A program made the position numbers and the translations under genes. Under the pieces are notes generated by a model. That model made no database searches and was not told the DNA's origin. It was given only the letters and a program-made list of their open reading frames with translations. A stretch of 64,000 bases of DNA from Eledone cirrhosa (Eukaryota): positions 88,040,001-88,104,000 of the forward strand of contig OZ024740.1 in the NCBI GenBank assembly GCA_964016885.1. The letters are read 5' to 3'. Of this stretch, positions 12,555 to 48,324 are shown piece after piece. The number at the start of each line of letters is the position of its first letter. Position 1 is the stretch's first letter.

Positions 12555-12573
12555 CAAGTCCTTTAATAATAAT

Positions 12574-12647
12574 GCTGTGATATATATTTCAATGACGACA
12601 CTGGCCACACTGTTCTGTGTGCGAGTGTCGTGTCATCATCAGACAGC
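12574..12647 (-). ncRNA. Type-I hammerhead ribozyme motif
   Basis: GCTGT-CTGATGA-[TGAC..GACACT..CACAC..GTGTG..AGTGTC-GTCA]TT-GAAA-TATATA-TC-ACAGC; stem I GCTGT/ACAGC; palindromic stem III. Confidence 0.8.
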
Positions 12648-13071
12648 TTGTTACATAATAAGGTTATGTTTCCGAGGCAATCCAAATTGAATCGACATGG
12701 GAACGGATGAAGTTCGTGCTTTTGGGTTTTTCATCCGTTCCCTTGAGTACCAATTCACCCCCACCGGTCTGCGCAAGCGCATGTCCGAAGGAAGTTGACC
12801 ATTAGCCACCGCAGATTTCAACGAAATTTGCTTAGTCAGTTCACCCTCTCAGCCAAACAATGGCCCACCTATGCCCTCCAAAGTTTACTGCTACCCATCA
12901 CGACTGTGGCAGTCAGCCGAAAGCCAGAGGGGATGGGAGGGTGTTAGTTTTTATAGGTCATAATACTACCTCTCACTAAGCGTTGACAGTACGACTGACC
13001 ATCAACTCACAAGGGAAAATAAACTTAATTCTAGGTATCATGGTTTTACATTGGAAGTTATTATGTAACAA

Positions 13072-13145
13072 GCTGTCTGATAATGACACGACACTCGCAC
13101 ACAGAACAGTGTGGCCAGTGTCGTCATTCAAATATATATCACAGC
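13072..13145 (+). ncRNA. Hammerhead copy with mutated core
   Basis: Same sequence as 12574-12647 but CTGATAA (G8A) and CAAA (G12C). Confidence 0.7.
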
Positions 13146-13270
13146 ATTATTATTAAAGGACTTGAAGATCTGAAACTACTTCGCTTTTCCTTATTCGATA
13201 TTTACTCCGTCACTCCTATGTGGAAAAAGTACGTTGAGTACTTGAATTGAATTGCATCAATGTTTACCCT

Positions 13271-14128: not shown

Positions 14129-15630
14129 TTTTTTTTTTTAAAATAAATAAGATTTACGTCTGTAATATATTAAACGTATATTTTCATACTTACTGTATCC
14201 AGTCATAAGTCTTAGGACAATGGGATTGATGAGTTAATATCTGTATACAACATCTACAACGGTACGCGATGGAGCTGACCCACAGCCCCGGCGGACAGAA
14301 TGGAGAAGGCGTTTCCCCGGAGGACGGCAAGGGAGACGCGCTGGAAAATCCACTCCAACTCGCCGGGCTCACACCTGCGGCTGGCCAGCTCAGCGCCTAT
14401 GGTAGTGAGGAAGGAGGTAGCCCTGGGGCCGAGGACACCAGAAGTCTCCACTGCCAGGGGTACGACCTCAAACCTGTCGGAGAGCGACCGGTATTTGAGG
14501 AGTTTGGCCCCCTCAGCCCAACGTGCAGCAGAACCTGGGTCAGTGGCAGACTGCACCAGGTTGCGGCTGCAGAAAGGGTCGGTGCAAGTGGCATCCCAGA
14601 CGAGGGGTTTGCCACCGCTAAACGGGAAGATGGTCATGCCATCTGACTTTTTGCCGTCCCCTCGATCCAGCGTCACTGGCTCGAGCTGGGAAGGGAAGCC
14701 TGCAGCGTCCAAGCCATGCTTAATGACCTCGTTGAGGGCAGCATGGCGTGGAATGTGGCCGGCACTGTGGCGACAGGAAAGCGGGTGGAGGCCGAAAGAG
14801 TCCACGGTGGAACCACAGCGACATTGGTGTGGCTGGCAGATCCGGAGGCCGAGTATCAGGGAAACGCCGATGTGCAGGGTATGGTTGTCTGGCTGCGTTC
14901 TAGTGGAGAAGGAGGACAGAGCATGGAGCCAGGCACCACTGTGGGGTTTGGAGGCCGCATTAAAACAAGCAACGTGGTGTTGGTCGAGCTGGCGCGTGAG
15001 CCTGTCTGAGGCCAGGCTACACTGGATGGCATCCCACGTGCGTTGAGGTGACTTGACGTCAACAAGGGGAGAAGGAGGAGGGACGTCTACTGGGATAAGT
15101 CCCAGCCGGTCCCACGTCTCACAGGCGGCTTCGCGTTCTCTGAACACAGAGGGTTCTGTTGTGTTTTGAAGAACCCTGCTGACAAGGACGCGGCACGAGG
15201 TTACCGACGAAAGATACGCCGGCAAAGCTAGTGAGATCGGGTACCGGAGGCAAAGGCCGCCATACCTGACAGGTAAAGTGGCCTGTTCCCACCCTATGTC
15301 GTCAAGCTTGACGTTGCTCCCCGACTGCTGCTCGGATACAAGTATCGAGGTCAGCGAGGAGAGATGTCTGGGTGTAGCACGGAGTGCTGCGGAGTGTATA
15401 GAGGAGCTTCGGTATGGCGAAGCAGTTCCTCAGCAGAAAGAAAGCTGGGTGGCTGTCAATCAAGCCCAGTCGGCTCATGAGAGTCTAGAGTGTTGAAGCC
15501 TGGATCTGATGGTGGAGCAGATGGCCAGCGGGTGGATCGGTGAGCCGACGATGAGGACATCCTCTTTGGGGGTCACCTGAACCTGGCGGAGAATGGACCG
15601 CACGTCCAAGACGGAGGCTGCAAAGCTCAA
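14129..15630 (-). mobile_element. CRE-clade RLE non-LTR retrotransposon, 5'-truncated
   Basis: GC-rich island; ORF with HSGAWL, CRCG..HPLSC, RHAALN, DGMT..P..LVWDATC, PLAVETSG and QRVSLAVLRGNA; poly(A) tail seen as a T-run at 14129-14139. Confidence 0.88.
14254..15225 (-). pseudogene. CRE element C-terminal zinc knuckle + restriction-like endonuclease
   Basis: 323-aa ORF with CCHC, RH and D..D motifs typical of CRE. Confidence 0.85.
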
Positions 15631-17679: not shown

Positions 17680-18095
17680 CACACACATATATATATATAT
17701 AAGAGGGTGTTAAAGTTTGCTTGAAGCATTGTGAAATGTGTAAAATATGTAGTTTAGAAAGCCACAACAATGCAGATGGGAAATCTCGAGGTAAGAAGTG
17801 AGTGAGAAATAGGAGAAAAGTGAAAATGAAAATGAAAACAAAACAAAGGTAGAAGGGTTACCGTAGAGGAGATTTAATCCCAATATTTCGGGCTCACGCC
17901 CATCAACGGGGGAAAAGTTCCAAAAGGGGGGGGGGAACAGGCTAAGCCGGAGAAAGTTCTATTGTCGTTAAAACTTAGGAATGCCGTTATGGGGAAAATT
18001 CAAACGAGGAATGCGGATGGCGTTCGTGGTATATTCACTCAGGTGGGGGATTTTAAAGAAGCAGGGCCATACGGAGGGAGGGACTTGACATACAT

Positions 18096-18494: not shown

Positions 18495-18931
18495 CCATAG
18501 TGACTAGTAACAGCCCCTACGGCCTACTATCCTTCACACACACGCACTTATATGTATACCCATACACATACACACACACATCTATATTTATACACGCACA
18601 CATGTTTATACAACCTACCACCTTTCACACTCTTTGTTTTCCAGCTTCTACGGCCCACTATCTTTCACACACACACACTCACATACATACACACATACAC
18701 ATATACACACACAGTTACACACACACATATATTTACACACACATATTTTACGGCTTTCACACGCTAGCGCACCCTATTGATTTAACCCAATTGGTTAGTA
18801 GCTTTTGCCACAGCCTATAACGCGCACGCGCATTCTTTCCCTCGTTTGAATTTTCCCCATAACGGCATTCCTAAGTTTTAACGACAATACAACTTTCTCC
18901 GGCTTAGCCTGTTCCCCCCTTTTGGAACTTT

Positions 18932-18967
18932 TCCCCCGTTGATGGGCGTGAGCCCGAAATATTGGGA
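18932..18967 (+). ncRNA. Degenerate minimal hammerhead in pLTR (mirrored at ~17878-17913 on minus)
   Basis: TCCC-CCGTTGA-T-GGGC(GTGA)GCCC-GAAA-TA-TT-GGGA; the core differs from CUGANGA at two positions. Confidence 0.55.
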
Positions 18968-19096
18968 TTAAATCTCCTCTACGGTAACCCTTCTACCTTT
19001 ATTTTGTTGTCATTTTCATTTTCACTTTTCTCCTATTTCTCACTCACTTCTTACCTCGAGATTTCCCATCTGCATTGTTGTGGCTTTCTAAACTAC

Positions 19097-19154
<58 letters not shown>

Positions 19155-19711
19155 TAGAAGTTATATTTAATTTGTTGGAAGTCCGACAAACATAAATGTT
19201 TATAACTGATTTAGAGCACTCAACAAGTTACTGGAGTAAATATTCAATGATATTAAATAAATGGAAACTATATTTATAAAACCATATTTATTTTATCATA
19301 TATATTTCAAGGGCAACCAAGACAACATTGGTACGCTTTCATCAGATAAAATACAAAGTTTATTTTATAAATAGAGACATACCCATGAAAATCATACCTT
19401 ATCGGTTGGAAATTCACTGGATAGTGGAAATATATTAGGGATTATTCAAACTTATGTGTGAATATGCAAATGGATATGTAAATTATTGAAAAACAACCGT
19501 TTATTTAAATGACACAGGAGAAAGAGAGAGAGAAAAAAAAATTATAAGAGAGATAGAGAGAAGAAATTAACAAGAGGATGAATAGAGCTCATGTAACGTT
19601 AATTTGGGGGAATATATTTTAAGTATATATCTACTAATGGTACGTGTATTTACGATTAATTAGTTGTTAAAATTATTTTCTAATACGATATTTACTGTTA
19701 TAAGTAGAACT

Positions 19712-19801
19712 GCAGAAATGCCCATTTGTACCGTGCTGTACCGTCCTGTGCTGTCCTTAATGTTATACTTTATGTCAACCCTTGTGGTTAATAAAGAAAC
19801 C
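19712..19801 (+). mobile_element. Tx1-like 3'-terminal fragment followed by (ATT)n
   Basis: Matches 33302-33390 (GCAGAAATGCCCATTTGTACCG...CCCTTGTGGTTAATAAAGAAA). Confidence 0.85.
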
Positions 19802-19824
19802 ATTATTATTATTATTATTATTAT

Positions 19825-20764
19825 TGTTCTTTGAGTCTCAGTCATTGATGTTATTTAACTGGAAAGTTTGTTGAAATGAATATCAAGCCGCTACCTGCAG
19901 CCTCAGATATTCAGGACGTATCGGAGGGTTCTTGCTGTTCCCAGCACGCATGTCTTTTGAAGTGTTCCAAAAAGCGGGACTGGACTAATCTTCTTTAACC
20001 ATCGTTGGAAACTCTTTGAGATAGTACCTAGTGCGCCTATGACAATCGGGACGACCTTGACTTCATGGCAGTTCCAAATCCTTTTTACCTCCCAATTTAA
20101 GTCCTGGTATCGGTTAATTTTCTCCCTCTCCTTCTCTTGCACTCTCGTGTCAAATGGGCAGGCTACATCTACAATCAGGCACGTTCTTTTTTCCTTGTCC
20201 AAAACCACCAGGTCAGGCCTATTGTGTTCTAATTTCTTGTCCGTCTGTATCCTAAAATCCCACAGCACCTTCACCTGGTCGCTTTCTATCACCGACTCTG
20301 ATTTATGCTCATACCACTTCTCAGAATGTGGTAAATTGTTTACTTTGCATAGGTGCCAGTGGATCACCCTGCCCATCACATCATGTCTCCAGCCTTTATA
20401 GTGAGTCTGGGTTAGGTGTTTACACTCGGATACAATGTGAGCCACAGTGTCCTCTCTCTCTCCACGGATCCTACACAGTGGGCTAGCCTCCTCCTTGTAA
20501 ATATAGTGTTTCACCCACTTCGTTCTGAGGGCCTGCTCTTGTGCAGCCATTAGAATTCCTTCTATAGCCTTTTTAAGGTCTCCTCTTTTTAACCAGTTCC
20601 ATGTCTGTGGATCTCTAAATTCAGTTTTCTTAAAGAAGGTACTATGAAGGGATTTTCATGAAGGCTGCTCTTCCTCCTTGTTGTTATTTCCTCTTTGGAA
20701 ATCCCCTAGTCAATTGTCTTCTCCTTCAGTACAATTTTGAGCAGTGACTCCCTACTGTCAGTCA
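19825..20764 (-). mobile_element. R4/Dong-like RLE retrotransposon family A, truncated
   Basis: ORF 19903-20550: AAQEQAL, CR..HIVSEC, RHD, WDFRIQTD..NRPD, DVACPFD, EK..Y.DL; the 3' end abuts the TAA repeat. Confidence 0.92.
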
Positions 20765-20978
20765 TAGGCGCACTAGGTACTATCTCAAAAAGTTTCCAGC
20801 GATGGTTAAAGAAAATTTGTCGCGCCACGCTTTTTGGAACGCTTCAAAAGGCATGCTTGCTGGGAACAGCAAGAACCCTCCGATACGTGCTGAATATCTG
20901 AAGCTGCAGGTAGTGGCTTGATATTCATTTCAACAAACTTTCCAGTTAACTAACATCAATGACTGAGACTCAAAGAAC
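20761..20978 (+). mobile_element. Family A 3' fragment
   Basis: IGALGTIS..LNI* plus the same 3' UTR, ending in (AAT)n. Confidence 0.88.
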
Positions 20979-20998
20979 AATAATAATAATAATAATAA

Positions 20999-21804
20999 AT
21001 ATGAAAACGGAATTCAGAGATCCACAGACATGGAACTGGTTGAAAAGAGGAGACCTTAAAAAGGCTACAGAAGGAATGCTAATGGCTGCATAAGAGCAGG
21101 CCCTCAAAACGAAGTGGCTGAAACACCATATTTACAAGGAGGAGGCTAGCTCACTGTGCAAGATCTGTGGAGAGAGAGAGAGGAGACTGTGGCTCACATT
21201 GTATCCGAGTGTAAACACCTAGCCCAGACTCACTATAAAAGCTGGAGACATGATGTGATGGGCAGGGTGATCCACTGGCACCTATGCAAAGTAAACAATT
21301 TACCACATTCTGAGAAGTGGTATGAACATAAACCAGAGTCGGTGACGGAAAACGATCAGGTGAAGGTGCTGTGGGATTTTAGGATACAGACGGACAAGAA
21401 ACTGGAACAAAATAGACCTGACCTGGTGGATCTGGACAAGGAAAAACGATCGTGCCTGATTGTAGATGTAGCCTGCCCATTCGACACGAGAGTGCAAGAG
21501 AAGGAAAGGGAGAAAATTAACCGATACCAGGACTTAAATTGGGAGGTAAAAAGGATTTGGAACTGCCATGAAGTCAAAGTGGTCCCGATTGCCATAGGCG
21601 CACTAGGTACTATCTCAAGGAGTTTCCAGGGATGGTTAAAGAAGATTAGTCTTGCTCCGCTTTTTGGAACACTTCAAAAGGCATGCTTGCTGGGAACAGC
21701 AAGAACCCTCCGATACGTCCTGAATATCTGAGGCTGCAGGTAGCAGCTTGATATTCATTTCAACAAACTTTCCAGTTAAATAACTTCAATGACTGAGACT
21801 CAAA

Positions 21805-21806
<2 letters not shown>
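20999..21806 (+). mobile_element. Family A RLE element, 5'-truncated
   Basis: ORF 21156-21731 RLE domain; (AAT)n on both sides. Confidence 0.92.
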
Positions 21807-21836
<30 letters not shown>

Positions 21837-21837
<1 letters not shown>

Positions 21838-22052
21838 GTCTTGGTATCGGTTAATTTAATAATAATAATAAGTCCTGGTATCGGTTAATTTTCTCCCTCT
21901 CCTTCTCTTGCACTCTCGTGTCGAATGGGCAGGCTATATCTACAATCAGGCACGATCGTTTTTCCTTGTCCAGATCCACCAGGTCAGGTCTATTGTGTTC
22001 CAGTTTCTTGTCCATCTGTATCCTAAAATCCCACAGCACCTTCACCTGATCG
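21837..22052 (-). mobile_element. Inverted internal fragment of family A, with a 20-bp stutter
   Basis: 21871-22052 encodes [14 protein letters not shown] on minus; its first ~20 bp are duplicated at 21838-21857 with (AAT)n between. Confidence 0.85.
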
Positions 22053-23950
22053 AAAGAAGTCACGTGGTACAAAGGACCAGTTACTTATTGATAAGATGGT
22101 AATGGGGAATTGCAGGAGGAGACACACTGATCTTGCCATGGGATGGATAGACTACAGAAAGGCATTTGACATGGTGCCTCATTCTTGGATCACCAAAAGC
22201 CTCGAGATCTTCAAGGTGGCAGATAACATCAGACAGTTGTTGGGCAAGAGTATGAGGTCCTGGGAAACAGAGTTGACATCAACTGGAGAATCCTTGGGAA
22301 GCGTGAAGATCAAGAGAGGTATCTTCCAGGGAGATAGCCTGTCCCCTCTGTTGTTTGTCCTTGCCCTGATGCCCCTGACCAGTGTACTGCGAAAAGTGAG
22401 AGCAGGATACGGGTTGGGAAAGGGAGGGCTTACCATCAATCACCTCCTCTTCATGGACGATCTTAAACTCTTCGGGAAGAGTGAGAAGGAGTTGGATGTG
22501 CTTGTTGACACTGTCCGTATTTTCAGCAGTGATATATGTATGCAGTTTGGTATTAGTAAGTGTGGAGTCATTGTGATGAGGAGGGGTAGGTTGAGCAGAA
22601 GTAACGGAATCCAGATACCAACAGGTGAGATGATAAAGGAAATTGACTCTGAGGAAGGATACAAGTATTTGGGCGTTCTGGAGGCTGATGGCATAAAGAA
22701 CAAAAAAATGAAGGAATTGTTAAGAAATGACTACATTCGGAGAGTAAGGAGCGTATTGAAGTTACATCTGAACAGCAGAAATGCCATAAGCGCAGTAAAT
22801 TCCCGAGCTATGTCTATTATTAGGTACAGTGCGGGAATTCTGAGATGGAATGTTGCTGAACAAAAAGAAATGGATAGGAAGACTAGGAAGCTATTGACTA
22901 TCTACAACATGTTCCACAAGAGGAATGATGTCGATAGACTCTACCTAAGGAGATCTGAGGGTGGAAGAGGTCTTATCAGCATAGAGGACTGTGTTCAGAT
23001 GGAGTAAAAACAACCTACACAAATACGTGACTGATAGTAAGGAGCCAATGCTCAGAACTGTACTGAAGGAGGGGACAATAAACCAGGGGATGTCCAAGGA
23101 GGAAATAACATCAAGGAGAAAGAGCAGCCTTCAGGAAACCTCCCTTCATAGTACCTTCTTTGAGAAAACTGAATTTAGAGATCCACAGACATGGAACTGG
23201 TTGAGAAGAGGAGACCTTAAAAAGGCTACAGAAGGAATGTTAATGGCTGCGCAGGAGCAGGCCCTCAAAACGAAGTGGTTGAAACACCATATTCACAAGG
23301 AGGAGGCTAGCCCACTGTGCAGGATCTGTGGAGAGAGAGAGGAGACTGTGGCTCACATTGTATCCGAGTGTAAACACCTAGCCCAGACCCACTATAAGGG
23401 CTGGAGACATGATGTGATGGGTGATCCACTGGCACCTGTGCAAAGTAAACAATTTACCACATTCTGAGAAATGGTATGAGCATAAGCCAGAGGCGGTGAT
23501 GGAGAACGATCAGGTGAAGGTGCTGTGGGATTTTAGGATACAGACGGACAAGAAACTGGAACACAATATACCTGACCTGGTGGTTGTGGACAAAGAAAAA
23601 AGATCGTGTCTGATTGTGGATGTGGCCTGCCCATTCGACACGAGAGTGCAAGAGAAGGAGAGGGAGAAAATTAACCGATACCAGGACTTAAAGTGGGAGG
23701 TAAAAAGGATTTGGAACTGCCATGAAGTCAAAGTGATCCCGATTGTCATAGGCGCACTGGGGACTATCTCCAAAAGTTTCCAGGGATGGTTAAAGAAAAT
23801 CGGCCCCTTCACGCTTTTTGGAACGCTTCATAAGGCATGCTTGCTGGGAATAGCAAGAACCCTCCGATACGTCCTGAGGCTGCAGGTAGTGGCTTGATAT
23901 TCATTCCAACGGACTTTCCAGTTAACTAACATCAATGACTGAGATTCAAG

Positions 23951-23951
<1 letters not shown>
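22053..23951 (+). mobile_element. Family A RLE element with RT, 5'-truncated and frameshifted
   Basis: [47 protein letters not shown], then CCHC and RLE; ends in (AAT)n. Confidence 0.95.
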
Positions 23952-23987
<36 letters not shown>

Positions 23988-23988
<1 letters not shown>

Positions 23989-25244
23989 TTCTTAACCATG
24001 CACAGAATGCATCACCCTAAGGCAGATATAGATAGAATATATCTCCCTAGGAAAGAAGGAGGACGTGGGTTAGTCCAGTTAGACATTGCGTTGAAAACTG
24101 AAACAATTGGATTATCTACATATCTAAGGGAATCACATGATTGGATGATCACACACGTTTTGAAACACGAAAGCATCAAAAGATCATCTTCCATTACAAA
24201 AGATGCACAAAGACACAGTAATGGACTACAAATTTCAGAAGTCCCATTTACTGCTGAAATGGAAAACACAGTAAAAGCAAAGCGGGTAAAATTAACTGCA
24301 AAGAAAGAACTGCTACAGAAACTGGCTAAGAAATGGCAAGAAAAGCCTCTGTATGGAAAATACCCAGAACGAGCTAACAATCCTGATGTTGACAAAACTT
24401 TAACCCATCAGTGGTTGGCATCCTCTGGACTGAAATCGGAGACTGAAGGACTGATTATATCAGCACAAGATCAGTGTCTGCCAACAAAAAATTACCAAGC
24501 CAACATAATAAAAAAATGGATGCAGCCCATTATGCCGTGTATGCAAAAAACAACCAGAGACCATTGACCATATAATTTCAATGTGCAGTCCTATAGCTCC
24601 AACCGAATACCTAAACAGGCATGACAGAGCTGCACAATACATACATTGGATAATGTGTAAGCATTTTGACCTGTCCCATCAAAAGAATTGGTGGGAGCAC
24701 CAACCACCTCCCATACTTGAAAAAGATCACATCTCAATCTTGTGGAACTTTAGCATCCAAACAGACCGAAAAATAGATGCAAATAGACCTGATATAATAT
24801 TGAAGGACTTTAAAAAGAGGGTATGCCTGCTAATTGATATGTCCGTTCCAATAGACAAGAATGTATCTATAAAAACATTTGAAAAATTGAGCAAGTATAA
24901 GGACCTGGAGATAGAAATTGGAAAAATGTGGAAATTGAGAGCTAAAATAATACCAGTGGTTGTGGGCGCTCTGGGAATGATACCTAAGGGGTCTAATGAT
25001 TACTTATCGCAAATCCCAGGAAACCCGCGTATAGGAGAAATACAAAAGATAGTACTAATGGGAACTGCCCATATACTAAGGAAGATTCTGTCAATATAAG
25101 TACATCACAAGTCTAAACACTAAAGATGCATGTGTGAGTATGTATGTTCTTTCTTGAACATGGCGGACCTTGTTGTCTCCTGAGGTCACTGGTTGTGACT
25201 TGCTGATAACTCGTATGAACATAAAGCAAGATAAATGCAACTGT
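23988..25244 (+). mobile_element. R4/Dong-like RLE retrotransposon family B, 5'-truncated
   Basis: HPKADIDRIYLPRKEGGRGL, SAQDQ, RHD, IQTD..NRPD, IDMSVP, EKLSKYKDL; distinct 3' UTR; (AAT)n flanks. Confidence 0.93.
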
Positions 25245-25250
25245 AATAAT

Positions 25251-25310
<60 letters not shown>

Positions 25311-25312
<2 letters not shown>

Positions 25313-25413
25313 TTTCTTTATTAACCACAAGGGTTTACATAAAGTAGACATTAAGGATAGTGCAGGACAATACAGTACGGTACAAATGGGCATTTCTGCG
25401 TGTAAAAAACAAA
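25311..25413 (-). mobile_element. Tx1-like 3'-terminal fragment
   Basis: Reverse complement of 33285-33390; shares the 25245-25310 repeat tail-to-tail with family B. Confidence 0.88.
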
Positions 25414-25455
25414 ATAATAATAATAATAATAATAATAATAATTATTATTATTATA

Positions 25456-25955
25456 AGAGATTGTGTGGTGGACAAGGTTGAAAGGGTTAAAGACAGACAC
25501 TTTCCTCTTCGGCGAATCCATAATTAACTTTTTCAAGTTTCACTTGAAGAGGAAAATCAGGGTGGAGAGGCAAGTGCTGCCTTCTAGCAAGTTTGTTGAA
25601 AGGTGGGTGAACGTAGCGAGAATGATCCGAGTGAACGGGACCGCCTGTAGTTTGAGAAATGGAAAAAATGAGAGAAGGCGCTTGCCCTGGTGGTCAGGGT
25701 GGCCGTGGTCTTTTCTGTGGTTTTCGCCACGAGTAACCCTCGGAGGTTTCCCCCCTACTGGGGAATTTTTAATTGTTTCAATTTTCATTTTTATTGTTTA
25801 TATATATATATGTTTCTATGAATTTTTCTTTTTTTTTCTTATATAAATAATAAAAATCTTTACACGCACAAAACCCACATTTTACCGTCCTTTACCGTCT
25901 TGTGTCGTCTGTAATGTTTCTCTTGATGTCAGTCTCTGTGGCCTATAAAGAAATC
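25456..25955 (+). mobile_element. Tx1-like 5'-truncated copy
   Basis: WWTRLKGLKT..FFKFHLKRKIRVE..ERWV plus 3' UTR, followed by (ATT)n. Confidence 0.9.
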
Positions 25956-25957
25956 AC

Positions 25958-26006
<49 letters not shown>

Positions 26007-26008
<2 letters not shown>

Positions 26009-27360
26009 AGTTGCATTTATCTTGCTTTATGTTCATACGAGTTATCACCAAGTCATAACCAGTGACCTCAAGAGACAACAAGGTCCGCCATGTTCAAGAA
26101 AGAACATACATACTCACACATGCATCTTTAGTGTTTAGACTTGTGATGTACTTATATTGACAGAATCTTCCTTAGTATATGGGCAGTTCCCATTAGTACT
26201 ATTTTTCGTATTTCTCCTATACGCGGGTTTCCTGGGATTTGCGATAAGTAATCATTAGACCCCTTAGGTATCATTCCCAGAGCGCCTACAACCACTGGTA
26301 TTGTTTTAGTTCTCAATTTCCACATTTTTCCAATTTCTATCTCCAGGTCCTTATACTTGCTCAATTTTTCAAATGTTTTTATAGATACATTCTTGTCTAT
26401 TGGAACAGACATATCAATTAGCAGGCATACCCTCTTTTTGAAGTCCTTCAATATTATATCAGGTCTATTTGCATCTATTTTTCGGTCTGTTTGGATGCTA
26501 AAGTTCCACAAGATTGAGATGTGATCTTTTTCAAGTATGGGAGGTGGTTGATATTCCCACCAATTCTTTTGATGGGGCAGGTCAAAATGCTTACGCATTA
26601 TCCAATGTATGTATTGTGCAGCTCTGTCATGCCTGTTTAGGTATTCGGTTGGAGCTATAGGACTGCACATTGAAATTATATGGTCAATGGTCTTTTGTTG
26701 TTTTTTGCATACACGGCATAATGGGCTGCATCCATTTTTTATTATGTTGGCTTGGTAATTTTTTGTTGGCAGACACTGATCTTGTGCTGATATAATCAGT
26801 CCTTCAGTCTCCGATTTCAGTCCAGAGGATGCCAACCACTGATGGGTTAAAGTTTTGTCAACATCAGGATTGTTAGCTCGCTCTGGGTATTTTCCATACA
26901 GAGGCTTTTCTTGCCATTTCTTAACCAGTTTCTGTAGCAGTTCTTTCTTTGCAGTTACTTTTAGCTGCTTTGCTTTTTCTGTGTTTTCCATTTCAGCAGT
27001 AAATGGGACTTCTGAAATTTGTAGTCCATTACTGTATCTTTGTGCATCTTTTGTAATGGAATATGATCTTTTGATGCTTTCGTGTTTCAAAACGAGTTTG
27101 ATCATCCAATCATGTGATTCCCTTAGATATGTAGATAATCCAATTGTTGCAGTTTTCAACGCAATGTCTAACTGGATTAACCCACGTCCTCCTTCTTTCC
27201 TAGGGAGATATATTCTATCTATATCTGCCTTAGGGTGATGCATTCTGTGCATGGTTAAGAGTTTTCGAATTTTTGTATCGAGCCTACGGATCTCTGTGCT
27301 TGACCAGTTGATGACATTGTAACTGTAGATTACTACTGGTATGGTAAGCGTGTTTATGGC
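26007..27360 (-). mobile_element. Family B RLE element, 5'-truncated
   Basis: Open 366-aa ORF 26152-27252 with CCHC + RLE; near-identical inverted copy of 23988-25244. Confidence 0.94.
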
Positions 27361-27603
27361 ATTTATTATTATTATTATTATTATTGAATGCTATGGTTGA
27401 CGGAGGCTCGGCTCTGTAAGGTATTGTAAATTTTGAACACTATAACAATTGTAAATTGTTTAAAACTTTAACGAACTTGTAGACAAAAACACCCTCCTCC
27501 TCGTGAGAGGGGTCTTTCTGCCCGTTATTTGGCCCTTCGGGGTTAAATAACTGCTTATTGGGGTTTTGTACCCAATATTTATTTTAAACAAAAAAAAAAC
27601 AAC

Positions 27604-29672
27604 ATGGCTACGAAAAAGAAATTTCATAGGTCACACCCACTCATTCTGTCTTCTTCTTCCTCAATCATCACTACAGCAGAGAGAAGATTGTCTCTCTCCC
27701 TCCCTTCTTTAAATGTGTCTCTCTCCCTCCCTTCTCTTTCGCAAGCGACGAAAGAAAAGAAAAGTCTCGTGCAAAGCGTGCAAGGTTTCTCCACGACGAC
27801 GACAGCGACGAAACAGGTGTGCGGGAAATACGAAAACCCAGTTCATTCGTCTGACGTCAGGAATAATAGCAGTAGCAGCCGTAATAACAACAGCAACGGT
27901 GACATTGAAAACAACAGTAGCAGCCGCAACAGCATCACCAGCAGCATAAACAACAACAGCATTAGCAGCAGCAACACCAACAACAACCACAGCAACAGCG
28001 GTGGAGGCAGTAGTCGTAGTACCTGCAGCAACAACAAAAGTAACAGCAGCTCTGACGACAACAACAACAACAGCAGCAAAGAAAAACCAATCTCATTTGC
28101 AGGTATTGCGAAAAACTTGGAAACAATCCTCATAACAAATGAGGAATTAGAGGAAGCGAAGAAGATGGTGACAAAGAATGGACACCGAGCAATCTGCAAG
28201 GCAGCGGAAAAATTTTCGAAACCCAACAGCACTGTACGGTCACGTACCGTACAGTAAGTACAAAATCCCGTAGGGTGGAAAGAGCCACAGAGGCTCAAAT
28301 ACAAAAAGCCTTGGGGTCTGTGTGGCAGCGGAAAACGCACATCACCCGAGGCAAAAAATATGCCACCGTAGACGTACTATTTGCCACACCCCAGGAGGCA
28401 AAGGCCCAATCCGTAGTGTCCCTAAGCAGCGAGGAAATGGTGTTGGTGCCCTCCTACTGCGGGCAAAAAATTGTGAGGGTCAAACTGACCCCCCCCCCCG
28501 AATGGCCCCTTCTTGGCTGGCCGCGTCTGTCCTCGTCGGAATCGAGGACAAAACAACTGTACTGCAAGTACAGAAAAAAGTAAGAGAAGATTGGGTCGGC
28601 ACCTCCATTGAGATGCTAATCCAAACCAACCAGGAGTGCATCGAAGCTATCCCGGATGTGATAGACTTCGATAACGGCACTCAACTGCCCATAAGTGTTG
28701 AAGGAAAACGCCCGAAATGCTTTCGCTGTGGATCGAAGACTCACACTGAGAAAGGAGAAAACCCCCCTCCTTCCGAAACCGGCTTCACGGCTACCAGCAA
28801 CAGGACAAGCGCCAACCAGGAACGATAGGTCCGTGGCACCCATACCCACGCCACGGAAATCAAAAACAGCAGCAGCAGTGGAAATATTAACAACAACAAC
28901 AGCAATACCAAATGCAGCTGCAACAAAGACTCCAGTGCAAACATCACCAACAACAACAAGTGAAAGAGTGGAGCTGGTACCCCTCCCCGACCTCACAGAA
29001 TCAGACATGGAGTGTGTGGTGGGAGAGGGATGGCAAAAGGTCGTAAGAAGGCACAAACGCAGAAGCAGCGCATCGTCGCCTTTGAAAAGGGAGGAAAGAA
29101 ATGAGAAAAGGGTAAAGTCTACTGCAAAGAGATCCACAGCAGCAACACCACCAACACCATCACCACCCACACTAGCACCACCATCACCACCGGCGACAAC
29201 CCCACCGCCAACAACACCTTCAACACCACCACCACAAGCACCAACATCGCAAACACAACAACAAAACACACACACCCAGCAACAACGACAAGAAAATAGC
29301 AGAACCACACCCCACCCCCAGAAAAACAAATGCACGGCAATAAATACACACAACAAGAAACTAATGACTAACATAATTGAACACACAGACATTTCACAAC
29401 ACGACTACATAATACCAGCACCAATCAAAACGCCAACTAACATAAGACTGCTAAAAATAGCACAGAAACAATACACAAACATTAAAACGAAATTCCCCAA
29501 CGCAGTTGGTGATTTCAGGGACCTAGGAGGAACCATCAATCGAAGAGTATATTCAGACATTCTCTTAGAAGAGCCGACGACCAGCCGAAGGGACGATTCA
29601 ACGGTCCCTTCACCAGACGATCAAGTGAAAAGGGATGTAAAAACCATCCCTTCTCTACCAAAAGTACGGTAA
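27604..29672 (+). pseudogene. Tx1 ORF1 (gag-like) with a stop and frameshifts
   Basis: ORF pieces 27604-28257, 28275-28583, 28322-28828 and 28695-29672; SFAG motif, EGKRPKCFRCGSKTH zinc knuckle, GWQKV motif, S/N- and P/T-rich tracts. Confidence 0.8.
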
Positions 29673-29707
29673 GTGGTCTTTCCCATCTTTTCCACTCTAT
29701 TTTAAAC

Positions 29708-32700
29708 ATGACCTCACTCAGAATAGGCAGCATAAATGCGCGTGGCTTGGGGTCGTCATGGAAGCAGGGTCACCTGCTCAACGACCTCAGGTCACTAAAC
29801 ATAGATGTAGTGGCCATCAGCGAGACCAGAATCTCCGAAGCACGGGCCTTCGCACCGATCTTCGGCGGCTACGATGTGTACGCATCTCCCAGCCGTCCTG
29901 GATCGGGTGGAGGAGTTGCTGTGCTTTTTCGGAGAGGTTTGGATCTCGCCATACGGGCCATCTTCCTGGACCCAGAGGGTAAGCTGGTGGTGCTGGACGT
30001 GACCAGCGGAGACGGGCAAGCTTTCAGGCTAGTGGCCGTCTATGCCCCGACAGGAGCAGGGCGGCCTGATTTCTTCCGGCGTCTGGAGACCTTTCTTGGA
30101 ACGTCCCGCTCTTTAGTGTTAGTGGGCGACTGGAACGGGATCTTCGATGCACGCTGGGACTGTGTGGGATTAGCGGATAGGGGTGGAGGGTGCAAGAGCC
30201 TCACCAACCTGCTCAGGCGTTTTGAACTGTCTGACAGGTACCGATTGGATTTCCCGAATGTGCCAATGTGGACTTGGACAAACCGCATAGGGTCATCCAG
30301 ATCATATCTAGATAGAGTATTTTGTAGGGAAATAGATAGGTCTAGCATAGGCTGTCCACAATTCAAGATAGTCAGCTACACGGACCACAAATTCGTGACC
30401 TGTGTGCTTGACTTAGATAGGCTTCATAGACGAGGACCCGGCTACTGGAAGCTAAACGCATCCTTACCAGCGCGCAAGGCCTACAGAGACCGGATTAGCG
30501 AACTAGTTAAGCGGGCGTTGACGGGGGCCATCGTCAACAACAAGTGGTGGTTTGCTCTGAAAAGAGCGATTAGAATAGAATCGATTAGGTTTAGTAAGGC
30601 TTTAGCAATAGAGAAAAATAGAGCAGAGGGAGAACTAGTTAGAAAATTAGACGAGGCGCTTAGCAAAGGCATTGCGACCGACGTGCTTGCGGCGAAATTG
30701 GCCCTTGACCAATTCTTCAATGCAAAGCACGAAGGCTGCGTTGTCAGAGCTAGGGTGCGTGCTCTCAGACACGAGGGGACGAAAGCCGTTCAATGGGCCC
30801 GAGTGGCGGAGGCGCGTCGTGGCAACAAAGCCACGATCCGGTCTTTGGTGGACCACGACGGGCGCATGCTACTCGATCCCGGGCAAATGTGTGAAGCTTT
30901 TCAGCGACACTTCGCTCAGCTGTTCGGGGGCAGCGGGGGGCCGGGTAGAGGGATGGACTTTAGTGTCTACCTCGACGGACTGCCGCGGCTCTCGGCCACT
31001 GAGGCGAAGTGTTGCGAAAAGCCGATAACAGCCGCTGAAGTAAGGGAGGCAATGACTGGCTGCACAAGGGGTAAATCGCCTGGTTTGGATGGTCTGCCCT
31101 ATGAACTTTACGTACAGATGCCAGACTTGTTCGGAGGCCTCTTGGCGGACGTCTACTGCAACTGGCAACAGAACGGGAGAATTCCCAGTTCTGTGAGCCG
31201 AGGAGCGGTGGCACTGCTGAGAAAGGATCCGAACAAGGGGGATAACATAGACAATTTCCGGCCCATAACTCTGCTAAACACAGAGTTTAAGATTTTGGCC
31301 AAGGTGCTAGCAAAGAGGTTGGCGCTTGTCGTTGGTGGTCTGGTGGGAGAGGCGCAGACATGCGCCATTCCCGACAGATCCATCCACGACAACCTCCACC
31401 TCATGCGATACATCGTAGAGAGGGTAGCTAGGGAACCTGGCACGGGTGGGTCCTTGATCAATTTAGATCAGTCGAAAGCTTTCAATAGGGTCGACCATCG
31501 TTACCTAGCGGCAGTCCTGAGGGCGGCTGGCTTTGGGCCCGTCTTCAGAGGCTGGATCGCTGCCATGCACAGCGACATCTGCTCTGTGGTGAGAGTGAAC
31601 GGTCACCTGTCGGAACCGTTCAACATCATGCGCTCGGTCCGCCAAGGATGTCCCCTCTCGTCCCTCTTGTACGTATTGACGCTCGAGCCATTACTGCACA
31701 AACTGGAGACGTTGAGGGGAGTCCCGCGCGAACTAGGATGCGGAAGATCCGTGTCAGCATATGCGGACGATGTCACCGTAGTGGTGTCGAACGCCAAACA
31801 CATCGAGGCGATCGGCACTACACTAAGAGAATACGAAGCGGTGACAGGAGCAATGATCAACCAGGAAAAGTCAGTGGGCCTGCAGCTCGGCACCTGGAGA
31901 GGCAGGTCCATGCCGTCCAACAGCGTCGTCGGGCGCTGGACGGACGGACCGGTTAAACTGCTAGGGGTCTGGTTCGGTCCGGACCTCCAGACGGACAAAA
32001 ACTGGGACGAGGTGACGAGCAGGGTGGCTTCTCTCACCCAGAAATGGGCGGAGAGGAAGCTATCCCTGAAAGGTCGAGCGGAGGTGGCTAACGCGTACAT
32101 CGCGTCTGTCATCTGCTACCGCCTAACCGTCGTACCTTGTCCTAAGCCTCGCCTGACTGCGCTGGAGCGTTTGCTCTTTCGCTTTTTGTGGAAGGGACGT
32201 GCTCCGATGGTCAGGCGGTCCATCTGTTGTCAACACCCGCTACGTGGAGGGCTGGGCATGCCGTGGCTGATGATGCGCAGGCACGCGCTCAGGCTACGAC
32301 ACCTCCACCTCTTCCTCGACGGTGATCAGGTGTGGTCGCCGTTTGCTAGACGCGTTTTTCCCCAGCTCGTTTCCTTGACGGAGCTGCAGTCCTGGGTCAA
32401 GCGAAGACCGAGAGGGAGCGCCTGGAGACTGGAATGTCTTCAGGCGCTCACAGCCCTCGACCAATCGGGCAATGTGATCGGTGGAAACTCCACTTCGGCG
32501 TTCTATAGAGGATTAGTTGAGGGGAAGAGCGACGACGTACTTGGGGAAACTCTAGGCGTCGATGAAAATCAACTAGCCAATCTCTTCGGAAGAACTTTCG
32601 GGCCAGGGCCTATGGACAACTTCCAGAAATCTCTGGCCTGGCAGTGCTACCGAGGAGCCTTGCCAGTTCGGGATAAACTCTACAGGCATGGAGGTGCCGT

Positions 32701-33127
32701 CAGCCGGGCATGTCCGAGATGCGCGCAGGGCGACGAAACCGTCCTGCACGCACTCGTCCAGTGTCCGAAAATTGCTGACTTGTGGGTTTATGTCGAACAC
32801 CTGCTGTCGCGTTTAGGACGGATCCAGCTATCATCTGAGTCTATCGTGAGGATTGCCCCGCCCTCCTCCTTTAGCCGGGAAGGGCAGGCAGTTTTTATCT
32901 GTCTGGTGGCCATGGCGAAAGAGATAGTATGGTGGACACGTTTGAAAGGGCTGAAGACGAGCACTTACCTCTTCGGTGATGCTCTGATTGACTTTTTCAA
33001 ATTTCATTTGAAAAGGAAAATCAGAGTAGAGAAGGAAGTGCTCTCTTCCCAGCATTTTGTTGAAAGATGGGTGAGAGAAGCAAGAATGGCCCGAGTGAAT
33101 GGGCCGACTCTGAGTATATATCTGTAA
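29708..33127 (+). CDS. Tx1 ORF2: AP endonuclease + reverse transcriptase + C-terminal zinc finger
   Basis: Uninterrupted 1139 aa: SINARGL, ISET, VYAP, GDWN, YLDR, TDH; GKSPGLDG, NFRPITLLN, LDQSKAF, VRQGCPLS, AYADD; CPRC..ETVLHAL..C. Confidence 0.96.
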   Translation: MTSLRIGSINARGLGSSWKQGHLLNDLRSLNIDVVAISETRISEARAFAPIFGGYDVYASPSRPGSGGGVAVLFRRGLDLAIRAIFLDPEGKLVVLDVTSGDGQAFRLVAVYAPTGAGRPDFFRRLETFLGTSRSLVLVGDWNGIFDARWDCVGLADRGGGCKSLTNLLRRFELSDRYRLDFPNVPMWTWTNRIGSSRSYLDRVFCREIDRSSIGCPQFKIVSYTDHKFVTCVLDLDRLHRRGPGYWKLNASLPARKAYRDRISELVKRALTGAIVNNKWWFALKRAIRIESIRFSKALAIEKNRAEGELVRKLDEALSKGIATDVLAAKLALDQFFNAKHEGCVVRARVRALRHEGTKAVQWARVAEARRGNKATIRSLVDHDGRMLLDPGQMCEAFQRHFAQLFGGSGGPGRGMDFSVYLDGLPRLSATEAKCCEKPITAAEVREAMTGCTRGKSPGLDGLPYELYVQMPDLFGGLLADVYCNWQQNGRIPSSVSRGAVALLRKDPNKGDNIDNFRPITLLNTEFKILAKVLAKRLALVVGGLVGEAQTCAIPDRSIHDNLHLMRYIVERVAREPGTGGSLINLDQSKAFNRVDHRYLAAVLRAAGFGPVFRGWIAAMHSDICSVVRVNGHLSEPFNIMRSVRQGCPLSSLLYVLTLEPLLHKLETLRGVPRELGCGRSVSAYADDVTVVVSNAKHIEAIGTTLREYEAVTGAMINQEKSVGLQLGTWRGRSMPSNSVVGRWTDGPVKLLGVWFGPDLQTDKNWDEVTSRVASLTQKWAERKLSLKGRAEVANAYIASVICYRLTVVPCPKPRLTALERLLFRFLWKGRAPMVRRSICCQHPLRGGLGMPWLMMRRHALRLRHLHLFLDGDQVWSPFARRVFPQLVSLTELQSWVKRRPRGSAWRLECLQALTALDQSGNVIGGNSTSAFYRGLVEGKSDDVLGETLGVDENQLANLFGRTFGPGPMDNFQKSLAWQCYRGALPVRDKLYRHGGAVSRACPRCAQGDETVLHALVQCPKIADLWVYVEHLLSRLGRIQLSSESIVRIAPPSSFSREGQAVFICLVAMAKEIVWWTRLKGLKTSTYLFGDALIDFFKFHLKRKIRVEKEVLSSQHFVERWVREARMARVNGPTLSIYL

Positions 33128-33388
33128 ACTAAAGGTGGAAAACTGGGAGAGGGCACTTGCCATGGTGGTCAGGGTCATTGTGGCTTTTTACTGGGCTTTC
33201 TCCACAAATGTCCCTCCGAAGTCTCCCCCCTATTGGGGAATTTTTCATTGTTATTTTCATTGTTATTTTTGTTACATCCTCTGTTTTTGTTTTTTTTACA
33301 CGCAGAAATGCCCATTTGTACCGTCCTGCTTTGTCCTGCACTGTCCTTAATGTCTACTTTATGTAAACCCTTGTGGTTAATAAAGAAA

Positions 33389-33436
<48 letters not shown>

Positions 33437-33438
<2 letters not shown>

Positions 33439-36400
33439 AGTCTGTTCGGACGTCTTTTTTGCTCGCTCCCAGTAAGTCGCTTTATTTACCTGTTATAATT
33501 ATTTGTTGTTAAATGTTTCTTGTTGTGTAAGGGATATAAGCCCTTGGACTTTGACCTGTGAAGGGGAAAGCATAATATTTGGGCCTCTTGGCCCAAATAT
33601 CTGAACAATAATTGAACATTTTACTTTTGAAAAAAAAAAAAAAAAAAAAAACATGGCTGAGCCACGGTCCCAGCAATATGTCTGCTGTCGTGTGACAACG
33701 GCGAAAAAGTTGAGAGGAGGGTTAGTGAAATTCATACAACAAACACCACCACAAACAACGTGAACAAAGACAACAACACTGAAAAAAAAATTACCACACC
33801 AACTCCAACAATAACAGCGTCAACCAAAACAGGCAACAGAAAAAAATGAAAACCCCTTAGCTTCACCCTCCGAAAGCGAAGGCAAACAAAGAGGGGGTAA
33901 AAGGCTGCAAGGAGACTTTCAGCAACACCACCACCATCACCATCAGCACCACAAGCACCACCACCAACAACAACCACACCATCACCAGCATCACCAAAAA
34001 CACCAACATCGCAAACACAACAAAACACACACACCCAACAGCAACAACAAGAAAACGGCAACAAAATCACCCGCCACCCCACCAAAAAAAGTACACAGCC
34101 ATAAACATGGCAAATAAAGAACTCTTACAACATATAAGGCAGCACACAGACATCACAGACAGAAAAAAACTACCACACCCCACCAACACCAAGAACTCTC
34201 CCGACAAACATAAACATCATTGAAATCAAAACAGAACATTACAAACTTTTAAAACAAAAATTCCCCAACGCTGTTGGAGACTTCAGAGGGTCGGTTACCA
34301 AGAGGATATACACCGACATCCTCTTGGAAACACCCATGACCACCCTTCACCACACAATCAAGGTAAGTGATCCTTTCTCACTTACCTAGTTTCTCATTCA
34401 ACATGGCCGTACTTAGAATAGGCAGTATAAATGTACGTGTCCTGGGGTCATCTTGGAAGCAGGGTCACCTGCTCAACGACCTCAGGTCACTAAACATACA
34501 TGTGGTGGCCATCAGCGAGACCAACATTTTCGAAGCACGAACCTTCGCACCGATCTTCGGCGGTTACGATGTATACGCATCTCCCAGCCGTCCAGGATCG
34601 GGGGAGGGGTTGCCGTGCTTTTTCGGAGAGGCTTGGACCCAGAAGGTAAATAGGTGGTACTGGACGTGACCGGCAGCGAAGGCAATGCTTTCAGGCTAGT
34701 AGCCGTCTACGCCCCGACAGGGGCAGCACGGCCAGATTTCTTCAGACGTCTAGAGACCTTTCTTGGAACGTCCCGCTCTTTAGTGTTAGTGGGTGACTGG
34801 AACGGTATCTTAGATGCACGCTGAGATTACGTGGGGCTAGTAGACAGGGCGGGAGGGTGTAAAAGCCTCACCAACCTGCTCAGACGTTTTGAATTGCCTG
34901 ACAGGTATAGACTGGATTATCCGAATATGCCAATGTAGACATGGGCAAACCGCATCGGGTCATCCAGATCGTATTTAGATAGGGTATTCTGTAGGGAAAC
35001 AGATAAGGCTAGTGTAGGTTGTCCACAATTTAAAGTAGTCGACTACACGGACCAAAAATGTGTGATCTGTGAAGTTGACTTAGATAGACTCCATAGGCAA
35101 GGGCCCGGCTACTGGAAGCTGAACGCGTCGTTCCCGGCGCGCAAAGCTTACAGAGACAGGATTAGCGAATTAGTTAATCGTGCGTTGACGGGTGCGATCG
35201 TCAACAACAGGTGGTGGTTTACCCTGAAAAGGGCTATTAAAGTAGAATCGATACTCCAAAAAAGTAGTGATAGATTAGAGGGAGAGTTAGTTAGAAAGCT
35301 AGAAGAGGCGTTTAGGACAGGCATCGCAACCGACGTGCTTGCGGCGAGATTGGTACTCGACCAATTCTTCAACGCAAAGCATGAATGCTGTGTTGTCAGA
35401 GCTAGAGCGCGTGCTCTAAGACACGAGGGGACGAAAGCTGTTCAATGGGCCCGGGTGGTGGAGGCGCGAGGTGGGAACAAGTCCACAATTCGCTCTTTGC
35501 CTGATCAAAACGGGCGCATGTTGCTCGAACCCGAGCAGATGTGTGCGGCTTTTGAACAGTACTTTGCTCAATTGTTCGGGAGCGGCGTCGGGCCGAATCG
35601 GAGTATAGACTTCGGTGCATACCTCGACGGACTGTCGCGGCTCTCGACGACCGCAGGGCAGTGCTGCGAAAAGCCGATAACAGCAGGTGCACGAGGGGTA
35701 AATCTCCATGTTTGGATGGTTTGCCCTACGAGCTTTATGCATACATGCCAGACTTGTTCGGCGACCTCTTGGCAGATTTCTACTGCAACTGGCAGCAGAA
35801 CGGGAGCATTCCCAGTTTTGTGAGACGGGGAGCGTTATAGACAACTTCAGGCCCATAATTCTGCTAAACACAGAGATTAAGATTTTGGCCAAGGTGTTAG
35901 CAAAGAGATTGGCGCTTGTCGTCGGTAATCTGGTGGGAGAGGCGCATACATGCGCCATTCCGGACAGATCCATTCACGACAACCTCCATCTCATGCGATA
36001 CATCAGAGAGAGGGTGGTTGAGGAACCTGGCACGGGTGGGGCCCTGATCAACTTAGATCAATCTAAAGCATTTGATAAGGTTGACTATCGGTACCTGGCT
36101 GCGGTCCTCGAGGCGGCCGGCTTTGGGCCCATTGTTAGGGGCTGGATCGCTGCCATGCACAGCAACATCTGCTCGATTGTGAGAGTAAATGGTCACCTGT
36201 CGCAGCCTTTCAGCATCATGTGCTCGGTCCGCAAGGGTTTCCCCCTCTCGTCCCTCTTGCCGTCCCTCTTGCCGTTACTGCACAAATTGGGGACGATGAG
36301 TGGGGTCCCATCCGAACTGGGATGGGGAGATCCGTGTCAGCTTTCGCCGATGACGTCACCGTGGTAGTGTCGAGCACCAAATACGTCCAGATTCTCGGAA

Positions 36401-36683
36401 CCGCTCTCAAGGAATACGAAGCGGTGACCGAAGCAAAGATAAACCAGGAAAAGATAAACAAGGTGGGCTTGCAACTCGGCACCTGGAGAGGCAAGTCCAT
36501 ACCGTCCGACAGCGTCGTGGGGCGCTGGACAGATGGACCGGTTAAATTGCTCGGTGTCTCGTTCGGTCCGGACCTGCAGATGGAGAAAAACTGGAGCGAG
36601 GTGACAAGCAGGGTGGCCTCTCTCACCCAGAAATGGGCCGAGAGGAGGCTGTCTCTGAAAGGTCGGGCAGAGGTGGCGAATGC

Positions 36684-36685
<2 letters not shown>
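33437..36685 (+). mobile_element. Second Tx1-like LINE, degenerate, ORF1 internally deleted, 3'-truncated
   Basis: ORF2 pieces homologous to the 29708 copy from ATG ~34403 to GRAEVANAY, then running directly into (ATT/ATC)n 36686-36775. Confidence 0.92.
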
Positions 36686-36775
<90 letters not shown>

Positions 36776-36780
36776 GTGTT

Positions 36781-36972
36781 ATGGCGAAGGATTGGCAGTA
36801 TCGGTAGAGGGTCGGACGCCATGCTTTGACGCATAGAGTTACGGCTCTTACCATTCTGAGTTCAAATCCCGCCAAGTTTAACTTTGCCTTTCAGCCTTAC
36901 GAGGTCGATAAAATAAAGTACCAGTAATGCACTGGGATAATTGCTGGCCTTGTGCTAAAAATAGAAACAATT
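36781..36972 (+). mobile_element. Full-length tRNA-derived SINE
   Basis: TGGCAGTATCGG A-box-like, GAGTTCAAATCCC B-box, family core and tail. Confidence 0.9.
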
Positions 36973-36979
36973 TTTATAG

Positions 36980-48312: not shown

Positions 48313-48324
48313 TAATTTACCCTT

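Follow-up and report, generated by a model that had tools for sequence, protein, structure and literature searches.

Dong-like and Tx1-like retrotransposons occupy a TAA microsatellite array of Eledone cirrhosa in opposite orientations

A 64-kb window of the Eledone cirrhosa genome (the whole stretch analyzed: 64,000 nucleotides of GenBank assembly GCA_964016885.1, contig OZ024740.1, positions 88,040,001 to 88,104,000) contains, at an internal chromosome site of this 3.0-Gb genome, an array of retrotransposon pieces set in a TAA microsatellite. The array spans positions 19712 to 36977 of the window and holds 12 pieces, 11 from long interspersed nuclear elements (LINEs) and one short interspersed nuclear element (SINE), with TAA repeats between most of them (Table 1). 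We consider it probable that the array arose by repeated insertion of two unrelated retrotransposon groups, here called Dong-like (families A and B) and Tx1-like (families a and b, or Tx1a and Tx1b), into the microsatellite in fixed, opposite directions, likely via nicks on different strands. The sequence data show which domains the two groups encode, that repeat flanks them on either side, that their polarity is opposed and that the pieces differ in age. An earlier, sequence-only reading of this stretch had counted about 12 insertions, which agrees with the 12 pieces but left an inverted family-A piece unlisted, and had placed TAA runs between nearly all of them, which is true of most spacers but not of the pieces A1 and A2, which are joined directly, with a 4-nt overlap and no repeat.

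All 12 of the (AAT)4+ or (ATT)4+ runs in the window fall within the array. On their sense strands, all six Dong-like pieces that retain a 3' end terminate in (AAT)n/(TAA)n, as had been claimed, and all four Tx1-like pieces with a natural 3' end terminate in (ATT)n. The sequence-only reading had extended the latter rule to every Tx1-like copy, which is too broad: the piece at 33437 to 36686 stops inside open reading frame (ORF) 2, where its relatives continue, and the imperfect repeat behind it, taken for a Tx1 3' end, is actually the 5' flank of the SINE. The tail-to-tail junctions (19802, 25244 and 25958) and the head-to-head junction (27363) lie where they had been described. On the forward strand, spacers read ATT up to position 19825 and once more beyond 25442, and AAT between 20979 and 25442, such that the single microsatellite proposed earlier does consist of TAA repeats throughout but has its polarity flipped in the block from 20761 to 25442. 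This block serves as an internal control for orientation. As the elements within it are flipped together with the repeat, orientation tracks the local repeat and not the chromosome or transcription, which shows that both kinds of element follow local repeat direction. Finally, with the fraction of rare variants per piece as a proxy for age, A1 to A3 (2.3 to 2.9%) are set apart from A4, B1 and B2 (0.7 to 1.0%) and from Tx1a ORF2 (0.3%), a spread indicating that the array grew stepwise. The repeat left on both sides of each insertion keeps the array open to further copies, and the self-growing landing pad suggested earlier fits both this age spread and the existence of duplications that begin in the repeat.

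The same flanks were found elsewhere in the genome. In each genome search, the best 40 of 72 to 1982 candidates were scored and 30 loci were returned, leaving 29 after exclusion of the window's own locus. ATT lay ahead of the full-length 5' end in 29 of 29 Tx1a loci, 28 of which read ATTATT followed at the junction by G, and in 26 of 29 Tx1b loci. At 3' ends, which for Tx1 elements enter ATT in a fixed phase, ATT was present in 26/29 Tx1a loci (the others being one AAT followed by ATT, one with two units and one cut short) and 23/29 Tx1b loci, and AAT was present in 28/29 and 29/29 loci of families A and B, respectively. By the same flank rule, the background at window positions outside the array was 1.2 to 2.2% per class. 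Once internal joins had been set aside (5 for A, 2 for B and 8 for Tx1a), 5'-truncated ends also adjoined the repeat: AAT in 20 of 26 cases for A and 13 of 16 for B, and ATT in 6 of 8 for Tx1a. Neighboring elements separated by a repeat spacer were compared in 214 loci, with 51 spacers consisting of less than half repeat dropped; mixed Dong-Tx1 pairs were opposed in 45/46 cases, and Dong-Dong (48/49), Tx1-Tx1 (15/15) and SINE-Tx1 (21/22) pairs were parallel. The two exceptions among LINE-LINE pairs are inverted pieces at 5' junctions. In four copies (loci L013, L020, L040 and L042), duplications included nonrepeat letters, and three began in the repeat and extended beyond it (18 bp at a Tx1 copy in L013; 57 and 18 bp at family-A copies in L020 and L040); other apparent duplications were repeat or tail matches and were excluded from this count.

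From the repeat on 5' flanks and the opposed mixed neighbors, it follows that the TAA repeat is a target of these elements and not merely their tail. That the repeat is a mere 3' tail of both families, which passively accumulated in a tolerant region, is hardly credible: while family A does carry a variant tail of its own (AATAACAAC...) and other transposons abound in the window, the repeat found 5' of 29/29 full-length copies and of most truncated ones refutes this explanation, the duplications include repeat, and orientation is strict. The sequence-only reading had named nonrepeat 5' flanks and random orientation as the outcomes that would speak against it, and the counts above are of the contrary kind. 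Several points nevertheless count against targeting as we describe it. The loci are best-scoring matches and, as such, a nonrandom sample; an alternative method for truncated 5' ends gave weaker results (Tx1a, 4 ATT and 2 none; Tx1b, 5 ATT and 8 none; A, 7 repeat and 3 none; B, 6 repeat and 6 none), some of the "none" rows being alignments that overran into the repeat; repeat is absent 5' of the left stub at 19712; and repeat carried by the RNA, instead of the cut site, may be the origin of the fixed junction phase.

Families A and B share 41% protein identity, and both have reverse transcriptase (RT), CCHC and PD..D..EK motifs. A single ORF, in which RT is followed by a C-terminal CCHC motif and a PD..D..EK restriction-like endonuclease (RLE), fits the R4/Dong clade, and a (TAA)n target on the sense strand, a trait of that clade, is present in both families. 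In locus L146, a family-A frame of 1141 amino acids is open, and R2 is its nearest match by sequence and by fold. N-terminal zinc fingers, an R2 trait, were not seen by eye in the N-terminal sequence, nor was there a Pfam match in a 107-amino-acid N-terminal stretch. The confidently modeled section of the N-terminal part consists of helices only; a fold search with the four-helix domain at residues 58 to 123, whose isolated model is poor (predicted local distance difference test score, 55), returned only generic helical bundles. A divergent N-terminal Myb/SANT-like domain is reported for R4/Dong (PMC7998251). No protein named as R4 or Dong was among the homologues retrieved, and the name Dong-like is given on the basis of architecture and target. 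A search with Rfam found no ribozyme of the hepatitis delta virus (HDV) type in three A/B loci that include the 5' region; divergent ribozymes may escape Rfam.

Despite their divergence in protein, A and B have a 5' region in common (about 86% DNA identity; L146:2995-3480 and L160:2977-3500), possibly a swapped or shared 5' untranslated region. The family-A 5' region had no significant match to either of the Tx1-like 5' regions of the window (best E value, 0.013 over 20 nt). By eye, a similar short motif ending in GTAAG was seen 30 to 50 bases in from the 5' end in Tx1a, Tx1b and A/B (window positions 27410 to 27421 and 33460 to 33476; near 3030 to 3045 in L146); it may be an internal promoter element. 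At the family-A 5' junctions in L011, L053, L056 and L111, short stretches of element sequence are directly duplicated, which suggests repeated priming.

The second group is of a different kind, its RT being just about 23 to 26% identical to that of the Dong-like elements. Tx1a ORF2 matches the Pfam domains Exo_endo_phos, RVT_1 and zf-RVT, and the catalytic motifs of its apurinic/apyrimidinic endonuclease (APE) are intact in an open ORF of 1139 amino acids. Among solved structures, human L1 ORF2p was closest (E value, 2e-51; residues 5 to 855), with R2 at 6e-21. ORF1 of the Tx1a copy in the window is frameshifted and spread over three frames; in locus L127, it is open (718 amino acids) and contains a C-x2-C-x4-H-x4-C knuckle, read by eye. 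Two ORFs, with APE, RT and a C-terminal zinc-binding domain in ORF2, fit the L1 group and its Tx1 clade. Named homologues came from Octopus sinensis (a short match) and Argonauta (58%), and since these searches returned no named Tx1 reference, the label Tx1-like is based on architecture and targeting. More than 20% of flanks being of one type has been used to define target specificity (PMC4494074); 5' ATT flanks in 29/29 and 26/29 copies exceed that share. Rfam returned no HDV-like ribozyme match at either of the Tx1-like 5' ends of the window.

Beyond these two families, a further 5' end, which begins with GGCGACC and has same-phase ATT ahead of it (L004, L025, L135 and L220), probably represents a third Tx1-like family. 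L098 and L099 are tandem full-length Tx1a copies; on both sides of L098 lies a direct repeat, about 50 bp in length and with ATT at its start and end, which could have arisen by tandem duplication or as a long duplication of the target. Older Tx1-like fragments in the window (1091 to 1663 and 9855 to 11642; 64 to 75% identity) do not adjoin a TAA run of at least four units. Among 37 loci of metagenome-contig relatives (22 to 51% identity), none had an ATT/AAT run of at least five units, and these relatives are too distant and fragmentary to inform targeting.

The SINE has its B box on the forward strand, and the 3' flanks of 71 copies near LINEs were ATT in 36 cases, AAT in 3 and neither in 32. 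Its 3' end is weakly similar to that of Tx1a, the score being reached by 5 and 18 of 500 shuffles. A partnership between the SINE and the Tx1-like LINE is plausible. The SINE was also considered as a partner of the Dong-like elements, which was dropped because B box and flanks give ATT polarity.

In target-primed reverse transcription, the primer is the target strand complementary to the 3' flank of the element. From this geometry, we infer that A and B are primed by the (ATT)n strand and the Tx1-like elements by the (AAT)n strand. Dong-like elements would thus prime reverse transcription from a nick made by their RLE in the (ATT)n strand, and Tx1-like elements, probably along with the SINE, from a nick made by their APE in the (AAT)n strand. 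Convergent targeting of opposite strands by the two endonucleases, as the sequence-only reading had put it, stands as far as targeting and polarity go; that the endonucleases themselves choose the strand, by strand-specific cutting and a defined order of nicking, we infer from the same geometry.

The flipped block is bounded by the repeat-free A2/A1 join (20761 to 20764) on one side and by the (AAT)10(TAT)4 palindrome (25413 to 25454) on the other. Followed in the direction of A1, the sequence runs from (AAT)4 through flipped repeat with its later guests, A2 backwards and the 4-nt overlap into A1 itself; in other words, the block lies in its entirety at A1's 5' junction, and by rare variants, A1 and A2 are of similar age. 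Exact AAT-to-ATT palindromes are found 523 times genome-wide, versus 54 for the reversed control, and in another phase 370 versus 41 times (about ten to one). Of the first 49 palindrome loci on the sequence labeled C1, a Dong-like 5' junction accounts for 10 and a Tx1 or SINE 3' end for 13, these being the two places predicted to expose an (AAT)n 3' end. For palindromes of the reverse type, 1 of 15 loci (L276, by eye) has an island at a Tx1 5' junction. At the A4 5' junction, the 184-bp inverted family-A piece begins at TAA and has the neighboring A3 as its best match (97.8%; rank 1 of 56), with which it has three variants in common that are absent from 26 other copies. Because of this match and these variants, the piece was likely copied in cis from the A3 sense strand or transcript. 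Classical twin priming was rejected for this piece, which overlaps A4's own sequence and matches A3 better. Together, the palindrome excess and the inverted piece matching its neighbor suggest that free (AAT)n ends likely copy, and are often extended with, reverse-complement sequence.

The flip was probably born at the A1 junction. At that site, reverse-complement sequence would have been added to the target's free (AAT)n 3' end, either by copying element RNA from its tail, which would yield the tail plus the 218-bp A2, or by snapping back on the strand to which the end belongs. Both routes, priming on an RNA tail and snap-back through the terminal AT, which is self-complementary, fit the flip. 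The flipped repeat would later have received A3, A4, B1 and a Tx1-like stub, all reversed. Alternatively, the array might have been uniform at first, and the block might have been inverted later at the DNA level or misjoined in the assembly, which would leave the targeting rule unaffected. Turning 20761 to 25442 back does make all spacers ATT, the junctions are unspanned by reads, and A1 and A2 are not mutual best matches. As for the reads, contigs and restriction site-associated DNA reads from four public runs, in which the families are present at high depth, gave no junction-spanning piece for 19000 to 28000 among the matches listed, and they neither confirm nor refute the locus. Set against this, both breakpoints coincide with the A1 5' junction; short flipped islands recur at Dong-like 5' junctions (10 of 49); inversion within the repeat should give both palindrome types about equally, rather than 523 and 54; and each piece has variants of its own, unlike collapsed copies. 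On balance, we consider an inversion or misjoin unlikely. An origin at the A1 junction has its own difficulties: A2 is 93.1% identical to A1 and ranks only 17 of 70, such that the two are not clearly from one RNA; 26 of the 49 palindromes are not at a junction that disobeys the orientation rule (14 with obeying neighbors and 12 without a recognized element); and among 37 longer palindrome loci, no other flipped block closed by a head-to-head A join was found.

Free (AAT)n ends also bear on how the Tx1-like elements find their target. These elements might lack a strand-specific endonuclease of their own, the (AUU)n end of their RNA pairing with any free (AAT)n 3' end, including those left by the second cut of Dong-like elements. 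The two places where such ends are predicted, the 5' junctions of Dong-like elements and the 3' ends of Tx1 elements, are also those where palindromes cluster; Tx1 3' ends meet ATT in fixed phase, and one Tx1b copy stops internally at a TA adjoining the repeat. We nevertheless think this quite unlikely, given that the APE motifs are kept in an open ORF2, that one 18-bp Tx1 duplication begins at the junction with ATT, which is what a staggered cut would produce, and that many full-length Tx1 copies have no recognized Dong-like neighbor in the flanks examined; moreover, the Tx1L endonuclease is reported to be sequence specific in vitro (PMC1950540). We tentatively propose, as a possibility somewhat short of even, that a Tx1-type APE lineage came, by convergence, to use the Dong target on its other strand and that the free (AAT)n 3' ends produced by both clades, often extended with reverse-complement sequence in the course of integration, write hundreds of palindromes into the genome and seed flipped landing pads, the 4.7-kb block being one, in which every later insertion is reversed.

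Table 1. Features of the array, by position in the 64-kb window
Position	Strand	Feature
19712-19801	+	Tx1-like (family a) 3' stub, 90 bp; 5' flank not ATT
19802-19825		(ATT)8 spacer, tail-to-tail
19826-20764	-	A1: Dong-like family A, 5'-truncated, RLE region; 2.9% rare variants, among oldest pieces
20761-25442		Flipped-polarity block (AAT on +); every intact element flipped too
20761-20978	+	A2: final 218 bp of family A; 4-nt overlap, head-to-head with A1; 2.3% rare variants
20979-20998		(AAT)6 spacer
20999-21805	+	A3: family A, 5'-truncated; 2.5% rare variants
21806-21868		(AAT)10, 19-nt first copy of inverted piece, (TAA)5
21823-21891		34-bp tandem duplication
21869-22052	-	Inverted family-A piece, 184 bp, at A4 5' junction
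22051-23951	+	A4: frameshifted family-A piece, 1.9 kb, RT through RLE; 0.7% rare variants
23952-23984		(AAT)11 spacer
23985-25243	+	B1: Dong-like family B, 5'-truncated; 1.0% rare variants
25244-25310		(TAA)22 spacer, tail-to-tail
25311-25412	-	Tx1-like (family a) 3' stub; orientation follows flipped repeat
25413-25454		(AAT)10(TAT)4 palindromic switch; head-to-head Tx1-like stubs on either side
25455-25957	+	Tx1-like (family b) 3' piece, 503 bp
25958-26006		(TAT)16 spacer, tail-to-tail
26007-27362	-	B2: family B, 5'-truncated; frame open across CCHC and RLE motifs; 0.9% rare variants
27363-27385		(TTA)7 spacer, head-to-head
27386-33390	+	Full-length Tx1-like (family a), 6005 bp; youngest piece, 0.3% rare variants in ORF2
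29708-33127	+	ORF2 of full-length Tx1a, open, 1139 amino acids: APE, RT, zf-RVT
33391-33435		(ATT)15 spacer, head-to-tail
33437-36686	+	Tx1-like (family b): 5' end present, last ~1.3 kb gone; frames broken; 80% identical to family a
36685-36775		Imperfect (TAT)30: SINE 5' flank, not LINE 3' tail
36776-36977	+	SINE, tRNA-type B box at 36858; polarity as Tx1-like elements

Elsewhere in the window, a DDE_1 transposase fragment (7372 to 8139) and a broken LINE with an RT fragment, outside any TAA run (43834 to 45480), were found. Two inverted pairs with 97 to 98% identity (17741 to 18009 with 18840 to 19104, and 12555 to 12661 with 13058 to 13164) are likely the ends of nonautonomous DNA transposons. 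Open frames of about 400 codons without a Pfam match, at 14254 to 15429 (-) and 48316 to 49524 (+), appear by eye to be retroelement remnants.

Compared with known systems, A and B resemble Dong elements (Bombyx Dong, DongAg, snail DongBg and ostracod Dong) in having one ORF with RT and a C-terminal RLE, no N-terminal zinc finger and a (TAA)n target, a target reported for Dong in most insects, molluscs and cnidarians (PMC7998251, PMC3812793). The Dong 5' junction is described as coming after TAA repeats on the sense strand (PMC3774820), and A and B are alike in this respect. Nothing essential differs: Rfam detected no counterpart here of the HDV-like ribozyme that Bombyx Dong, like R4, has at its 5' end, and A and B have a long 5' region in common. 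For the Tx1 clade, reported microsatellite targets are (TC)n, (TTC)n, (TTCC)n and (TTTC)n (PMC4494074). Kibi, Koshi and the crocodilian Tx1 families described in that source are, like Tx1a and Tx1b, target-specific APE elements in microsatellites, but with TC-type targets, whereas Tx1a and Tx1b target (ATT)n in common with an RLE element. Dong-R4 and L1-Tx1 families are reported to have been recently active in Octopus vulgaris, in a source whose available text does not mention targets (PMC13282606). In the literature searched, a scope outside which Repbase lay, neither an ATT-targeting Tx1 nor a comparable polarity flip was found. Our findings add (ATT)n as a target for the L1/Tx1 group. They also provide two naturally paired, unrelated endonucleases, each of which would read a different strand of one three-base repeat, and this repeat is a simple test substrate for strand choice by APE and RLE. 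As young copies with long open frames exist, functional assays are feasible.

The inverted pieces invite comparison with twin priming of L1, reportedly described by Ostertag and Kazazian in 2001. In twin priming, inverted sequence at the 5' junction is primed from the second target end and joined by a short overlap. The pieces reported here likewise consist of inverted sequence at a 5' junction with a short overlap, but they represent a 3' end plus tail (A2), repeat alone or a copy of the neighboring element, whereas twin priming inverts an upstream part of the same RNA; locus L143 does resemble classical twin priming. The role of the second target end during LINE integration is described as poorly understood (PMC6895275), and the junction footprints bear on this step. 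They also suggest a retrotransposon-driven source of palindromic microsatellites.

Two further systems combine different elements on one target. Keno (Tx1 clade, APE) and Utopia (RLE) are reported to have evolved the same U2 snRNA gene target in parallel (PMC4640811) and are thus, as here, an APE and an RLE element converging on one target. Their 3' flanks are identical, hence their orientation is the same, and their target is a gene, in contrast to the opposed polarity seen here in a microsatellite that is reusable on both sides. In the telomeric repeats of Bombyx, TRAS and SART are likewise two families that occupy one simple repeat, opposed and in mixed arrays. SART is an APE element. Both families are R1-clade APE elements and telomeric, whereas the array described here combines unrelated groups, with APE and RLE, in dispersed microsatellites. 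For TRAS and SART, opposite orientation within one repeat has been reported (PMC10088271). The Eledone array works like TRAS/SART but, with its TAA target, internal site and RLE-type partner, is not a member of that system.

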